A model generated the notes under the pieces. The model made no database searches and had not been told where the DNA came from. It was given only the letters and a program-made list of their open reading frames with translations. The position numbers were made by a program, and so were the translations under genes. Below, in pieces: positions 6,541 to 43,934 of a DNA stretch of 43,934 nt (the first letter of the stretch is position 1; every line of letters begins with the position of its first letter). Source of the DNA: a virus. Taxonomy: Duplodnaviria; Heunggongvirae; Uroviricota; Caudoviricetes. The DNA is taken from the IMG/VR virus record IMGVR_UViG_3300024054_000549. The stretch is one strand, 5' to 3'.

Positions 6541-7686
6541 TTACCAATCTAACGATTGAATTTTACTACGGTTGTTGAATTTTGTTATTGCGTTGTTCAG
6601 AATTGTTGAAATTCTTGATTTATATTTTTCTTTGCCCATTTGGGTCTCAGCAGCATTTGCTAATTCCTGACGTTCTGATAATGTCATATTCTTAAATACT
6701 GATACAGCATTTAAGAAATCTGATTTTGTTTTGATGAGTTTTAAGTACTTATGGTACTCTTTTGGAAGCATTTCGAGAGCTGGATGACCATTTTTATCTT
6801 TAAGTATTAAAGGTACACCTCTACTTAGAGATTCTAAAGATGTTATTGTAAATGTATCTGGATAATTACCAACAAACGTTACTTCTGATTTACCAATATT
6901 ATCCATAATCTCAGAATGATTAACATCTAATTCAATATCCTTCGAGTACTTATTTAATGCGTTAAGAACGTACTCATCTTGCTGATCTTTACTTTGATGT
7001 CCAAGAGTACTATAAGTTTTGACATTTCTTCCAGATCCTTCAAGATATATATTAATTAGAAATGTATCTTTTCCCTTAGATGCCGCTGAAACGTGTCTTA
7101 TGAATCCATCTGATTCTTGAACGGTAGTTTTTTCACAGTATTGAGGATAAAAAATTTCATCTGGAACGATACCGTCGAAATTCCATTCTGATCTTTTAGT
7201 ACTGTAGTATTTTATTATTCCAGCTTTATGGTATTCTGAAACAGCACAAAATGTACATCCATGTGTACTCACCATTTCATTAAGAAGATTAGCATTCAAA
7301 AAATCAGTCCAAAACCCAGGCATTGAATGAAGAACATAAACAATGGGAATATTCAGGTTTAATAATTCTTTATAGAATTTACTGAACTCATAATTGCTTA
7401 TGATAACATCTGGTTTAAATTTATGAATGTCGTTAATTATTTTCTTTTCAATGCTGCTCTTATGAGTTCTTGAAAATGATTTGATATCTTTTACATTATG
7501 ATTCACATAATAATCGATACCTGAGAAATCTTGATCAAGATCTGTGAATGCTGAGAACATTCTTACATCATGACCCATTTCTTTTAAGATATTGAATTGA
7601 GTTAATGCCGCAACATCGATCCCAGATACTCTTTTTTCCCTAGAAAAAAATGTTTTCCTGGAATAAGTTAAAATATATATTTTCAT
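6541..7686 (-). CDS. GT-B fold glycosyltransferase (GT4-like)
   Basis: N-terminal SG...LKEMGHDV and C-terminal DTFTITSLESLSRGVPLI, a variant of the ExFGxxxxEAxxxGxP donor-binding motif. Confidence 0.8.
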   Translation of the reverse strand: MKIYILTYSRKTFFSREKRVSGIDVAALTQFNILKEMGHDVRMFSAFTDLDQDFSGIDYYVNHNVKDIKSFSRTHKSSIEKKIINDIHKFKPDVIISNYEFSKFYKELLNLNIPIVYVLHSMPGFWTDFLNANLLNEMVSTHGCTFCAVSEYHKAGIIKYYSTKRSEWNFDGIVPDEIFYPQYCEKTTVQESDGFIRHVSAASKGKDTFLINIYLEGSGRNVKTYSTLGHQSKDQQDEYVLNALNKYSKDIELDVNHSEIMDNIGKSEVTFVGNYPDTFTITSLESLSRGVPLILKDKNGHPALEMLPKEYHKYLKLIKTKSDFLNAVSVFKNMTLSERQELANAAETQMGKEKYKSRISTILNNAITKFNNRSKIQSLDW

Positions 7687-23530: not shown

Positions 23531-23570
23531 AATTCTAGTGAATTCTAGTAAATTCTAATGAATTCTAGTG
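23531..23570. repeat. Four tandem 10-bp repeats (AATTCTAGTG consensus)
   Basis: aattctagtg aattctagta aattctaatg aattctagtg read directly from the sequence. Confidence 0.85.
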
Positions 23571-23572
23571 AA

Positions 23573-23962
23573 TTACTGAATAGATATTAACTTTTTAAGT
23601 TGTTCTTTTGGCTGAACTGTAATGCTCAGAATTCCATCAGTCATCGATGCATTAACATCTCCGCCAACAAAATTCTCCTGCATAGCGATTATCCGCTCGA
23701 ATGTATTTGAGCTTATATGCCTTTGCATCCATTCAATATCAGATTCTTGAACATCTTTTACCTTATTTCCTCTAATATGTAACTGATTACCCTTCATCTC
23801 TAATTCGATATCATCTTTACTAAATCCCGCAACCGCGATTGCAACATGCAGAACACCGTTTTTGTCGATGCCTAAATCAGTTAAAGGATATCGAGTAATC
23901 TTATGCTCAAAGTTTGGTTTTAGGAACCATTCTAAATCTCTTAGTGCTAGTGAGTTTAACAT
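23573..23962 (-). CDS. Small heat-shock protein (Hsp20/alpha-crystallin)
   Basis: YPLTD, IAVAGFSKDDI, RHISSNTFER and MTDGILSI. Start moved to ATG 23962, which has a strong AGGAGA RBS. Confidence 0.92.
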   Translation of the reverse strand: MLNSLALRDLEWFLKPNFEHKITRYPLTDLGIDKNGVLHVAIAVAGFSKDDIELEMKGNQLHIRGNKVKDVQESDIEWMQRHISSNTFERIIAMQENFVGGDVNASMTDGILSITVQPKEQLKKLISIQ

Positions 23963-26785: not shown

Positions 26786-26885
26786 TCAAATTGTGTTGAA
26801 ATTGTGATCTGAAATTATTATTGTTCAAATTGTGTTGAAATTGTGATTTGAAATTACTATGGTTGAAATCGTGATTCAAATCAAA
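26786..26885. repeat. Intergenic direct repeats: two 39-bp units (36/39 identical) built of T(G/C)AAAT-core 10-mers
   Basis: Units at 26786-26824 and 26825-26863; core copies start at 26786, 26797, 26810, 26825, 26836, 26849, 26864 and 26876. Confidence 0.85.
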
Positions 26886-39525: not shown

Positions 39526-40629
39526 CTACCAACCAAAATCTTCCGATGTTAATTCCCTATCAATTTTGAAAATGCTCGAAAGATCCATGATAATTGATTT
39601 TAAACTATTCTCATTTAAGTACTGAATAAATTCTTTTTCATTGTACGAAGAATTAGATTCCTTGTATTCTAGAATTATCTCATTCCAAATGTTCGAAGGT
39701 ATCCCTTCCTCCATAATCAAAGAAACATTTCGATTGTAATGTTCTCTATATAATGGATTAGAATCTAGCCAGTTCTCAAGAGATCCAAATTCCTTTATTT
39801 TCTTTTGAAGCGAAACTGGTCCGAATTTTATATCTTTATAGATATCTTTCACGCCAGTTGATTCTCCATCTCGATTTGTTTTATAGAAATTGAACTCTTC
39901 TAAAATGGTTCGTTTTTCATCAATTGGCATTCCTGAGTTCTTGAATTCAAATGGTGTTCTAAAGTTTACTTTTTTACTTTCTAGATATTCAATAAACCTA
40001 TCACTGAATTCAGTCCCATCAATTACCTTAGGAATATCATCAGCACCATCACCCAAAATAACATGCTCAAGAATCCAATGATCCATGTGATCATGTTTAT
40101 TTTCAGGAACAATCCATTTTTTAGTTAATGAACTATACTGGAATACATTTTCAGTATCTCTTTGAGCTTGAATCATGTCCTTATCCGGACTGTGAATCAA
40201 AATCTTTTCGTACTTATTGTATTCTCGCGATAGTACTAGCATAATATCATCGGCTTCAGCTGTATTAACTTCAACAACCCTCCATGGAAGATTATTTCTG
40301 ATTTGATATATCAAACCATCAATTTCTTTGAAAACTTCACCGAAATTTATGTTCGATTCTTCTCTAGCTTTTTTCCGCCCTGATTTATACCCTGGATAAA
40401 TAGATTTTCTCCAGTACCCATCGGATGATTTATCAAGACATATAACTAATTCACCAAAATTATTCTTATGTTCGCGAGAAATGTTAAATAAATCCTGGAA
40501 AATATAGTATTTAGTTAAGCCAATGAATTCAGAAGTAACGTATTTTTTATTCTGAATCTTTGGCTTAACATTAGCTATTGAAGTATGAATCATTCTGTGT
40601 ATAATACTTGAAAAATCAATGAGAATCAC
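39526..40629 (-). CDS. rnh: T4 RNase H-like 5'-3' exonuclease (FEN family)
   Basis: ILIDFS, YKSGR, AEADD, SPDKDMIQ and GDGADDIP; GTG start. Confidence 0.9.
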   Translation of the reverse strand: MILIDFSSIIHRMIHTSIANVKPKIQNKKYVTSEFIGLTKYYIFQDLFNISREHKNNFGELVICLDKSSDGYWRKSIYPGYKSGRKKAREESNINFGEVFKEIDGLIYQIRNNLPWRVVEVNTAEADDIMLVLSREYNKYEKILIHSPDKDMIQAQRDTENVFQYSSLTKKWIVPENKHDHMDHWILEHVILGDGADDIPKVIDGTEFSDRFIEYLESKKVNFRTPFEFKNSGMPIDEKRTILEEFNFYKTNRDGESTGVKDIYKDIKFGPVSLQKKIKEFGSLENWLDSNPLYREHYNRNVSLIMEEGIPSNIWNEIILEYKESNSSYNEKEFIQYLNENSLKSIIMDLSSIFKIDRELTSEDFGW

Positions 40630-41628: not shown

Positions 41629-41636
41629 TATTTATA
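41629..41636 (-). promoter_or_regulatory. TATAAATA late-promoter consensus overlapping the gp45 stop, upstream of gp32
   Basis: Exact consensus; could be coincidental because it includes the TAA stop. Confidence 0.5.
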
Positions 41637-42336
41637 CCTTAACACTCATAAGAATCTTAAAGCCATCTAATGATTTGTTATCCATCAAGATTCGATAAGA
41701 ATCGCGAGAGCTATTGTACTTCACATTAACAGTATAGTCAGATATAGGGATCATTTTGAAATTATCAACCGGAATCTTAATATCGAATTCCTTAGAAGTA
41801 TTAGCATTTTTTGTCACGCTAAATGTATTAGATTTAGCATTGAATTTATTAGTTGCCCCTAGTGAGATTTTCATGTCTCCGTCTTTAGAGGTGAAAATAA
41901 CCTCAGAAAGATCTTTGAAAACAGCTGTTGCTGCTTTGATTGACTTGATATCATCGTTCATCATATCAAACGAAGCAACTGTTGGAACCTGCTCGGTTTT
42001 ATCAAATTGATCTGGATTTTTATCGTATGCATCCATTAATGCAATGTTATCCATAATATATGATGAACTCATATTATCAGAACTGACATTAATTGAATTG
42101 TTCTCAATATGAACTTTTGGACTTTCAGAGAATAATTTAAAGAGATTCAAGAAATCCGTTAAACTATCTTTAAGACCAATATCTGGAAATTGATCGCTAT
42201 CTAATTTCGAAACATCAAATAGAACCATCATATCCTGTGATTCAGAAACGGCAACAGTTTTCGGATACTTCAAAATAACAGAATTGGTAATACCATTAAT
42301 TTGCGAAAGAACATCAATTACACTATTATTAAACAT
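41632..42336 (-). CDS. Sliding clamp (T4 gp45-like)
   Basis: 234 aa; N-terminal ..IDVLSQINGITNSVIL and ..LTDFLNLFKL resemble gp45; adjacent to gp32. Confidence 0.8.
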   Translation of the reverse strand: MFNNSVIDVLSQINGITNSVILKYPKTVAVSESQDMMVLFDVSKLDSDQFPDIGLKDSLTDFLNLFKLFSESPKVHIENNSINVSSDNMSSSYIMDNIALMDAYDKNPDQFDKTEQVPTVASFDMMNDDIKSIKAATAVFKDLSEVIFTSKDGDMKISLGATNKFNAKSNTFSVTKNANTSKEFDIKIPVDNFKMIPISDYTVNVKYNSSRDSYRILMDNKSLDGFKILMSVKV

Positions 42337-42401: not shown

Positions 42402-43358
42402 TTAAGATTTCGACAAACCGAAAAGAAAAAATCCAAGACTGTTATAAAACTCATGTTTAGTTCTTGGAACTCTGATAAAACCATCGTCAGTACTCTTAAA
42501 GATTGCTGAACCTCCACCAGATAAACTAATAAAGTCGCATTTATCCAAAATTTTACCGTATTTGGTTTCGATCAATGAGAGCAAATCTTTCAGATAAGAT
42601 TTTTTTACCTCATCAACATATTCCTTAAACGGGTGTTTCTGACCGCGAAGTTTGTAAGTACCGGTATCAATAATCTCTTTAGCCTCATGCAAGGTAATTT
42701 GTCTACCGTGTACTTCCTTAACCTTTTTAGCAACTTGCGTTGCAATTTTCATTACACCTTCTCGTTCGATACCCTCAAATAAATTAGGAGATGTTTTACC
42801 ATCTGTAACCAAGAACATATCAAGTGTATTGAACCCAATGTCACACCCGACGAATGTAGTATTTCCCATGAATTCTTCTTGTTCATTAGGAAAATTATTC
42901 CCGTACTTATCAATCGTCAGTTTAGATCCAGCACCCTGAGGAAGAATATAAACCTCATTGAAGATAAATCGTTCACCATTAACCTCAAAGTCCATTAATC
43001 CTTCTTTGAAGTGACCAGAATTTTCAATCTGAGACTTAGATAATCCAGAGATAATAATATCTGGTTTATATCCAATCATTTTAATTGCATGATAAAGAAA
43101 CAGGGAAGCATAGTACTCGAGATTTTTATAATCTGTAATATCAATCAAATTCTCAGACGGTAAATGCAGAGCATTGTCGCCAACATAATAAAAATGTTCT
43201 TTGAAATCATAAATTCGAGAATCTTGAACGTACTCGTTCCGTTTAGTTATTCCAATTGTACTCGTGAATTTGAATTGTTTTTCAATGTTTCCATCTTGAG
43301 TTCCAACTGTAACCTTCACATCACCATAACCAATATCGATACCTAAAATTTTCTTCAT
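42402..43358 (-). CDS. ParM/StbA-like actin-fold ATPase
   Basis: Phosphate-1 GIDIGYGDVK, connector PQGAG, phosphate-2 CDIGFNTLD and adenosine SGGGS. Confidence 0.88.
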   Translation of the reverse strand: MKKILGIDIGYGDVKVTVGTQDGNIEKQFKFTSTIGITKRNEYVQDSRIYDFKEHFYYVGDNALHLPSENLIDITDYKNLEYYASLFLYHAIKMIGYKPDIIISGLSKSQIENSGHFKEGLMDFEVNGERFIFNEVYILPQGAGSKLTIDKYGNNFPNEQEEFMGNTTFVGCDIGFNTLDMFLVTDGKTSPNLFEGIEREGVMKIATQVAKKVKEVHGRQITLHEAKEIIDTGTYKLRGQKHPFKEYVDEVKKSYLKDLLSLIETKYGKILDKCDFISLSGGGSAIFKSTDDGFIRVPRTKHEFYNSLGFFLFGLSKS

Positions 43359-43382
43359 GTTAACCTCTTTAAATCAAATAAT

Positions 43383-43676
43383 CTAAAAATCTAAATTTTG
43401 CATTTCGCTAGCCACATTAACTGGGCGATTTTTTATTTTAATATCTGGTAATTTAACAACCTCTTGAAAAACAGAATCAAATTCTTCATCTGTATTTAAA
43501 AATTTCTCTTTAGGCTGAGATTTATGAATTTTATTTTGTTCTTTAATCTGTTCGTTAATCTGTTCTTTGTTCGATGAGTCAACCGAACTGACCGTACTAA
43601 CAGTTGAGGATCCGTCAGCAAAGTCGATTTTAAGTTTTGAAATATCTTTCGAGCATTTTATGGATAATTCGAACAT
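43383..43676 (-). CDS. Hypothetical protein (97 aa) ending NRPVNVASEMQNLDF
   Basis: ATG start directly upstream of the ParM-like gene; paralogous to the upstream partial ORF. Confidence 0.75.
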   Translation of the reverse strand: MFELSIKCSKDISKLKIDFADGSSTVSTVSSVDSSNKEQINEQIKEQNKIHKSQPKEKFLNTDEEFDSVFQEVVKLPDIKIKNRPVNVASEMQNLDF

Positions 43677-43683
43677 TTAAATC

Positions 43684-43932
43684 TCAGAATTCAATGTTTG
43701 TCATTTCCGATGGGATCTCACGCTTAGGTCTATTTACATCATCATTTTGTGTTCTTGGAGTCGCGGTGTCTTGAGCACTTTGAGTTCCAACTCTATTTGT
43801 AGTTATTTTTTCGTTTACATCAAATGTATCAGATAATTCGAGTGCTGGCGTTTTTACAATAGGTGATCCGCTATCATCAAATGTTATATCAACATTTATG
43901 TGTTTTATCTTTTGATTCTCTGGTAAGCCTTT
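43684..43932 (-). CDS. 5'-truncated ORF, paralogue of the 97-aa protein; not in the ORF track
   Basis: Hand translation: ..KGLPENQKIKHINVDITFDDSGSPIV...NRPKREIPSEMTNIEF-stop. Confidence 0.7.
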   Translation of the reverse strand, partial: KGLPENQKIKHINVDITFDDSGSPIVKTPALELSDTFDVNEKITTNRVGTQSAQDTATPRTQNDDVNRPKREIPSEMTNIEF

Positions 43933-43934
43933 AA

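Follow-up and report, generated by a model that had tools for sequence, protein, structure and literature searches.

The 43,934-nt stretch of viral DNA analysed here (IMG/VR record IMGVR_UViG_3300024054_000549, class Caudoviricetes; referred to as the window) was found to encode, on its minus strand, an actin-like ATPase preceded by two small proteins, named A and B, whose C-terminal tails are alike. The three genes form a module conserved in a clade of T4-like phages, and the tail of B was predicted by co-folding to lie in the actin groove at which the adaptor ParR binds ParM. On balance it is probable that the tails bind the actin and that A and B act as its dedicated partners. The genes of the module are as follows, with A being cut by the end of the window.

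43684..43934 (open reading frame (ORF) 43684-43932, 5'-open), minus strand: A, 82 of its 87 amino acids (aa) within the window, tail ending NRPKREIPSEMTNIEF (ORF list)
43383..43676, minus strand: B, 97 aa, tail ending NRPVNVASEMQNLDF (ORF list)
42402..43358, minus strand: actin-like ATPase of the ParM/Alp type, 318 aa (Pfam, PHROG, AlphaFold 2 (AF2), Foldseek, invariant motifs)

The 318-aa protein is a divergent actin of the ParM/Alp group, given its remote structural and sequence matches and its invariant nucleotide-binding motifs. It matched Pfam families ALP_N (37.8 bits, cut-off 26.3) and MreB-like_C (44.2 bits, cut-off 27.8) as well as PHROG 691, annotated as ‘partition protein’ (E-value 4e-38), and the residues of the phosphate-1 (D8/G10), phosphate-2 (D173/G175/T178) and adenosine (G281/G282) motifs were invariant in 26 relatives. 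An AF2 model built from the alignment of these 26 relatives reached a predicted local distance difference test (pLDDT) of 90.8 and a predicted template modelling score of 0.87. The best Foldseek matches of this model were the archaeal actin homologue Ta0583, pCBH ParM, pSK41 ParM, CorM and R1 ParM, with E-values of 1e-18 to 1e-14 against Ta0583 and the ParMs; the matches also included the ParM-ParR peptide entry 4A62, and all were at or below 20% identity. By sequence, the nearest solved protein was Alp12, at a marginal E-value of 0.003. The original prediction, which was made from the sequence and which this analysis followed up, had proposed a ParM-like actin downstream of two small proteins and beside gp45 and gp32; the nature of the actin was confirmed by the agreement of Pfam, PHROG 691 and AF2/Foldseek, and the arrangement was borne out by the ORFs, Pfam and PHROG. 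The protein is predicted to be a polymerising ATPase.

The partner families and their linkage to the actin

Gene order was counted using hidden Markov models for A, B and the actin on contigs that extend 1.4 kb or more beyond the upstream side of the actin. A search seeded with the actin returned 45 viral loci, while one seeded with the B profile returned 44 loci, 11 of which were new. The actin was present at all 44 of the latter, within ~1.5 kb downstream of B except at locus L086, where it lies ~3.6 kb upstream. The order A-B-actin on one strand was found in 40 of 43 contigs, with one further contig having a single hybrid protein and two having neither A nor B; at L039 and L040, where both are missing, a homing-endonuclease-like 458-aa gene is situated upstream of the actin. 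The two small genes therefore co-occur with the ParM-like gene, as had been anticipated. In several relatives other genes separate B from the actin, yet A and B stay neighbours, with only L012/L013 (a 51-aa ORF) and L029 (a 133-aa ORF) having anything between them. The inserts between B and the actin include a 141-aa gene in L006/L007 and genes of 230-288 aa, some of them homing-endonuclease-like (L022, L024, L025, L044).

B was found in all six of the cultured Vibrio phages that have the actin (Va1, TDDLMA, SRILMA, pv27, phiTY18 and phiKT1024), and A, B and the actin were all read in the one genome of TDDLMA. The same A-B-actin order also occurs in a separate, abundant uncultured lineage. An A variant of 79 aa (protein P0088; L126-L129) was recorded in 888 assembly-collection blocks, on contigs of up to 179 kb, which places the module in at least one very abundant uncultured phage lineage; at L126, an IS605 OrfB / Cas12f-like TnpB gene lies ~3 kb upstream. 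Campylobacter phages of the CP220 type possess a related actin, and no A- or B-like genes were found upstream of it (in CP220), indicating that the pair is a trait of one clade and not general to phage actins of this type. A locus search seeded with the clamp returned only the same clade.

Family alignments were built from related phage contigs, comprising 25 B sequences (alignment A1) and 23 A sequences (alignment A2). Both proteins have the same three parts, namely an N-terminal beta module of ~28 aa, a low-complexity linker of variable length and sequence and, at the C-terminus, a conserved acidic-hydrophobic tail, the whole proteins being 73-114 aa for A and 83-116 aa for B. The conserved segments lie in the window at the following positions.

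43593..43676, minus strand: B residues 1-28, conserved N-terminal beta module, MF.L.I.C[ST]KDI..L.I.F[AS]DG (alignment A1; AF2 pLDDT ~80-84)
43467..43505, minus strand: B residues 58-70, second conserved motif, [FY]L[DN][TL]D.[DE]F[GS] (alignment A1; outside the modelled actin interface)
43386..43460, minus strand: B residues 73-97, predicted actin-docking peptide, ..P.I....RPVKVA.ELQNLD[FI] (co-fold interface)
43687..43734, minus strand: C-terminal tail of A, last 16 residues, related to the B tail (hhalign, A1 against A2)

Within the N-terminal module of B, residues F2, I17, F19, D21 and G22 were invariant in alignment A1, and the corresponding consensus of A reads MIIEIKDLP....IK.I..DI.FE. 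The second motif of B sits ~30 residues before the end of the protein and resembles the C-terminal tail ..LTA[ED]DFGW of the RNase H of the same phages. For the tail of A the consensus is ..R..K.[IV]P.EM.[DN][LM]EF. Profile-profile comparison (hhalign, A1 against A2) aligned the tails of A and B with an E-value of 7e-6 over 30 columns, and aligned their N-terminal modules weakly (E-value 2e-4, 12 columns, probability 47%). The tail sequences on which the original prediction relied were quoted exactly, and their likeness, kept across 23-25 diverse sequences, is not due to chance; the N-terminal segment and low-complexity linkers it attributed to both proteins are as described, with the N-terminal likeness being the weaker of the two.

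Loci L031 and L033 each encode one protein that begins like A but continues and ends like B, and these hybrids fit a common descent of A and B. The two are taken to be paralogous, largely disordered proteins. The AF2 model of B alone has two strands (residues 14-18 and 24-28) that form a beta hairpin at a pLDDT of ~80, followed by a low-confidence linker and a helix at residues 88-94. No Pfam or PHROG matches were obtained for A or B. Each family comprises ~57 clusters among 5.8 billion proteins; none of these clusters bears a name beyond ‘hypothetical protein’, and a precomputed Pfam domain was present on one weak A match only. The search found no longer forms of B fused to other domains, which is weak evidence. 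Look-alikes of B in the ESM Atlas all scored below 0.9, the B model there being poor, and provided no lead.

Predicted docking of the B tail

The proposal that the tails engage the actin was examined for B by co-folding the actin (26-row alignment) with B residues 56-97 (25-row alignment), alongside three controls, two with unrelated partners and one with an unrelated protein replacing the actin. The interface score (ipSAE) was 0.75 (0.75, 0.71 and 0.77 in separate runs), and the best control scored 0.00. The pass mark used is reached by 58 of 80 solved complexes and by 2 of 110 mismatched pairs, although these counts are only rough for self-made alignments. At least 83% of contacts were common to the runs, and the pLDDT of the partner was at least 62. 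Furthermore, the actin has no close solved relative (the best being Alp12), so that the pass is not a mere recall of a near-identical complex.

Contact residues on the actin were 111-119, 137-147, 188-191 and 313, with the tightest contacts joining B V86-A89 to actin 111-119, B E91/M92 to actin 137-140 and B L95 to actin 190. On the AF2 model of the actin, these residues belong to a helix of subdomain IA, the IA-IIA strand and hinge helix, the loop after the IIA phosphate-2 hairpin and the C-terminal helix, elements which together make up the hydrophobic groove that separates IA from IIA. On the B side, the contacts include all of the near-invariant residues P77, I79, R84 and E91. The terminal helix of B is thus predicted, in these models, to occupy the IA/IIA groove, where ParR binds ParM and arcadin-2 binds crenactin. 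This groove has been described as a ‘hot spot’ for gelsolin, WH2 domains, thymosin beta-4, arcadin-2 and the ParR adaptor (PMC5173319). Given the homology of its tail with that of B, A would be expected to dock at the same site.

Paired changes in the actin and the tails are consistent with such contacts. Actin K188 is replaced by T/V in one lineage in which both tails carry K in place of D/E at the second-to-last position, and actin N113 is replaced by Y/F in lineages in which B A89 is replaced by D/E.

In the mechanism proposed here, A, B and the actin would be one early-expressed module of a T4-like phage clade, with A and B each contributing a C-terminal peptide of ~25 residues that binds the actin. 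The last eight residues would form a short amphipathic helix inserted in the hydrophobic IA/IIA (‘barbed-end’) groove, and the extended RPVKVA segment before this helix would run along a helix of subdomain IA, so that docking would follow the mode known from ParM:ParR and crenactin:arcadin-2. The flexible linker would tie the N-terminal beta module to filament ends or monomers, and this module in turn probably joins A to B or binds cargo.

Two outcomes of such docking can be considered. The tails may bind the groove while A and B serve to regulate polymerisation, as sequesterers, cappers or depolymerisers in the manner of arcadin-2 or thymosin beta-4, with the N-terminal module being used only for pairing. 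Arcadin-2 has the same build, with a conserved C-terminal helix after an unconserved linker, and through its peptide, which occupies the IA/IIA groove, crenactin is depolymerised (PMC5173319). A chromosomal ParR is reported to be a depolymerisation factor (PMC12270681). Moreover, the groove is the longitudinal contact of the filament, so that a peptide filling it competes with polymerisation, and neither a DNA-binding fold nor a conserved centromere was found, as would suit regulators. However, two conserved and distinct N-terminal modules and the second motif of B suggest partners beyond the actin, and ParR, which uses that groove as well, promotes the growth of filaments at their ends. We consider a purely regulatory role possible but doubtful. 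Cargo attachment, with A and B as adaptors, appears the favoured outcome over pure control of polymerisation on account of the two distinct conserved N-terminal modules, the frequent translational coupling of A and B and the extra motif of B, although the two roles are not far apart. The original prediction had suggested replication factories or proheads as what such a system might position.

Setting of the module and competing explanations

The actin is followed on the minus strand by further genes of a replication cluster, two of which bear on the interpretation of the tails.

41632..42336, minus strand: gp45-type sliding clamp, the rival candidate partner of the tails (PHROG 223, E-value 1e-19)
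39526-40629, minus strand: RNase H/FEN-type exonuclease, 367 aa (ORF in the window)

In the 5' to 3' direction of this strand, the order is A, B and the 318-aa actin, then ORFs of 234, 303, 367 and 332 aa, which encode the gp45-type clamp, gp32 (Pfam gp32), the RNase H/FEN-type exonuclease and a primase. The intergenic gaps in the module are 7 to 65 bp. At many loci the start of B overlaps or abuts the stop of A, which fits co-translation of the pair, and A is preceded in a number of relatives by a sigma-70-like -10 box or by a terminator hairpin, which marks where the unit starts. The full-length A (87 aa) was identified at L003:3412-3675, on a contig whose actin and B are 100% identical to those of the window, and there it is preceded by a topoisomerase II subunit and a 219-aa protein. 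The 219-aa protein belongs to PHROGs of unknown function and occurs at that spot in some relatives only; its gene was considered as T4 gp59 and rejected after comparison. The wider context is the replication cluster of a T4-like phage, with topoisomerase, clamp, gp32, RNase H, primase, terminase and ribonucleotide reductase. The clamp adjoins the actin in most relatives, while eight small genes lie between the actin and gp45 in Vibrio phage TDDLMA; at L104, genes are inserted upstream of gp45, after which the contig ends.

The trio is not a ParMRC system, as it has neither a ribbon-helix-helix adaptor nor a conserved centromere array, and lacks a plasmid context. No ribbon-helix-helix was detected in A or B by Pfam or PHROG, and the AF2 model of B has no helices before residue 88. 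No conserved centromere-like repeats were found adjoining the module, in which the only repeat lies within the coding linker of B, and its carrier is the replication cluster of T4-like phages as opposed to a low-copy plasmid or plasmid-like prophage. The idea that A and B are ParR-like adaptors therefore stood in part: the predicted placement of the tail in the actin groove was supported, for B, by a controlled co-fold, while the N-terminus proved to be a short beta hairpin and not a ribbon-helix-helix domain. Some repeats do occur near the module or within the window. At L003:3368-3410, ~40 bases past the window end, the space separating A from the 219-aa gene is occupied by four 10-bp direct repeats in tandem (ATTGAGTT[AG]A), which have an iteron- or operator-like look; they were absent upstream of A from all 24 of 24 relatives. 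Two intergenic iteron-like arrays are situated at window positions 23531-23574 (AATTCTAGTG, 4.4 copies) and 26786-26881 (a 39-bp unit, 2.4 copies, containing AAATTGTGATTG-type repeats), with late-promoter-like TATAAATA boxes nearby; the original prediction singled out these arrays as candidate binding sites.

Several points weigh against the actin as the target of the tails. The co-fold expresses the confidence of a model and is not a measurement, and its pose may echo a learned likeness, since peptide complexes of ParM:ParR and crenactin:arcadin-2 have already been solved. Conservation of the groove says nothing on partners, as the groove is also the filament's own longitudinal contact, and K188 is replaced by L in L075 with the tail unchanged. 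At L086 (L086:1-6917) the order is actin, clamp, gp32, RNase H, 217-aa protein, A, B and helicase, with the A-B pair after RNase H and not ahead of the actin; this gene order indicates that the pair and the 217-aa gene were split from the actin block. In a Mantel-type test, the divergence of the B tail correlated equally with that of the actin and that of the clamp (r 0.56 each; partial r 0.17 each, p ~0.06), and the test therefore fits both partners. T4 gp55 ends in ..SLDFLYEAND and gp33 in ..TLDFLL, sharing an LDF core with B (..NLDF), and the gp55 homologue of the clade is without a T4-type tail, while a gp33 query finds nothing in two complete genomes.

These last observations bear on the reading, already raised as an alternative by the original prediction, in which the tails are epitopes for the gp45 clamp and A and/or B are clamp-tethered factors, such as stand-ins for gp33 or regulators of the replisome, their adjacency to the actin being incidental. 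The clamp ligands of T4 have comparable acidic-hydrophobic C-termini (PMC2988020), and gp45 lies within a few kb at all loci. The lack of a tail on the gp55 homologue and of a gp33 homologue leaves room for a gp33-like role of A or B, although gp33 is poorly conserved, so that its absence from the two complete relatives queried is unproven. The late sigma factor gp55 homologues (~287 aa, against 185 aa in T4) were located at L124:1201-2064 and L123:1192-2052, both on the minus strand, and carry no hydrophobic-acidic C-terminal clamp epitope. The ends of B (..NLD[FI]) and A (..[DN][LM]EF) have the core of the T4 tails (SLDFLY../TLDFLL) in common and are missing their last hydrophobic pair. However, the T4 clamp tails of polymerase, gp55 and gp33 are alike and interchangeable (PMC2988020), whereas the tails of A and B are unlike other tails of their clade. 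There the polymerase is split into two genes whose second half ends ..ET[AE][ES]LDDW (..ETAELDDW/..ETESLDDW), and the RNase H tail reads ..LTA[ED]DFGW; the ending E[ML]..h[DE][FI] is found on A and B only in the complete 205-kb genome of a relative. With divergent clamps (L074, L075, L077, L084) the RNase H tails shift strongly, but the B tails stay ..NL[DE]F. In Vibrio phages, with eight genes between the actin trio and gp45, A, B and the actin are still together. A and B have no helical flap-binding body like that of gp33, and the co-fold with the actin passed while all controls scored 0.00. Binding of the clamp in place of the actin is accordingly judged rather unlikely. Among other proteins of these phages, the RNase H tail ..R[ED]LTA[ED]DFGW is conserved (window, L004-L083), and the RNase H and polymerase tails are candidate clamp-binding peptides, C-terminal as in FEN-1; the PIP motif of T4 RNase H is N-terminal (PMC3012046). 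A 381-aa protein at window positions 6541-7686 (minus strand), with no PHROG match, ends ..KIQSLDW and is acidic-aromatic like these polymerase and RNase H tails.

The clamp could also take part alongside the actin. B might be a two-motif bridge, with its internal LDTDxDFG motif binding DNA-loaded gp45 clamps and its terminal helix binding the actin, and with A being the second arm of an A/B hetero-oligomer; this combined arrangement is considered improbable. If true, replicating or late-transcribing DNA would be attached to actin filaments by way of sliding clamps and in the absence of a centromere sequence, amounting to a sequence-independent, clamp-based machine for positioning DNA in a lytic phage. 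Lastly, the target of the tails might be a protein of the host (such as its MreB, the beta clamp or a protein interacting with single-stranded DNA-binding protein), with A and B being host-takeover factors that merely lie beside the actin. Early phage genes often encode small disordered proteins with short hub-binding motifs, and the tails are likewise acidic-hydrophobic. Against this, the hosts differ widely (cultured Vibrio and other environmental lineages) while the tails stay conserved alongside the phage actin, the A-B pair is strictly linked to that actin, and the co-fold was specific to the actin in the control in which it was replaced. A host target is the least credible of these explanations and very improbable.

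Comparison with known systems

No family entry, name or paper for the A-B-actin set was found in the databases and literature searched. For the actin-like genes of T4-like Vibrio and Campylobacter phages, annotation goes no further than ‘partition protein’ or ‘MreB-like ATPase’, and no study of partners of these phage actins was found in the same literature. The present analysis defines a conserved three-gene module and two unnamed partner families, and provides a concrete docking model. As cultured phages of Vibrio alginolyticus and V. parahaemolyticus carry the module, it is within reach of genetics and imaging.

Comparison with ParMRC (R1 ParM, ParR and parC; PDB 4A62) showed that a ParM/Alp actin ATPase with small partner gene(s) directly upstream is shared, as is, by prediction here, a C-terminal partner peptide in the IA/IIA groove (the ParM:ParR groove as cited in PMC5173319). 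The dissimilarities are the lack of a ribbon-helix-helix, two paralogous partners instead of one, the lack of a conserved centromere array, a lytic T4-like phage replication cluster instead of a low-copy plasmid, and an actin that is at most 20% identical to solved ParMs. The crenactin/arcadin-2 system (Pyrobaculum arcade cluster; PMC5173319) also has clustered genes and a partner with a conserved C-terminal helix, an unconserved linker and the IA/IIA groove as its site. Arcadin-2 has no sequence relation to A or B, however, and is a depolymeriser of ~200 aa with a folded core in contrast to their beta module of ~28 aa; the likeness, as judged from the docking model, would be one of mechanism only and not of homology.

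The AlpC/AlpA/alpS system of the Corynebacterium glutamicum prophage CGP3 (PMC4446434, PMC5539076) shares a phage-borne actin with an adaptor and a tie to viral DNA replication. AlpA binds defined alpS DNA sites, whereas neither a DNA-binding fold nor a conserved site was found here, and CGP3 is a temperate actinobacterial prophage whose proteins are unrelated to A and B. The clamp epitopes of T4 gp43, gp55 and gp33 (PMC2988020) have in common with the tails that they are short acidic-hydrophobic C-terminal peptides on a flexible linker, with an LDF core shared with B and a gene beside gene 45. The tails of A and B differ in ending two residues earlier, in having the conserved upstream R-P-x-K-V-A / I-P-x-E-M and in being unlike the clade's own polymerase tail. 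CorM/CorR of Anabaena (PDB 9RMI; PMC12645912) similarly comprises an actin with a small partner, and CorM is one of the phage actin's closest matches, in structure as well as in sequence, but it is a chromosomal cyanobacterial system for cell shape.

An actin with a partner that places a C-terminal helix in its groove is thus already known. New, within the literature searched, are the two partner families and their duplication, the lack of a DNA-binding fold or centromere, and the setting in a lytic T4-like replication cluster. It may then be asked what a virulent phage would move or organise using an actin without a centromere. If true, the docking model would bring lytic phages under the principle of a peptide in a hydrophobic groove, alongside eukaryotic actin binders, ParR and arcadin-2.

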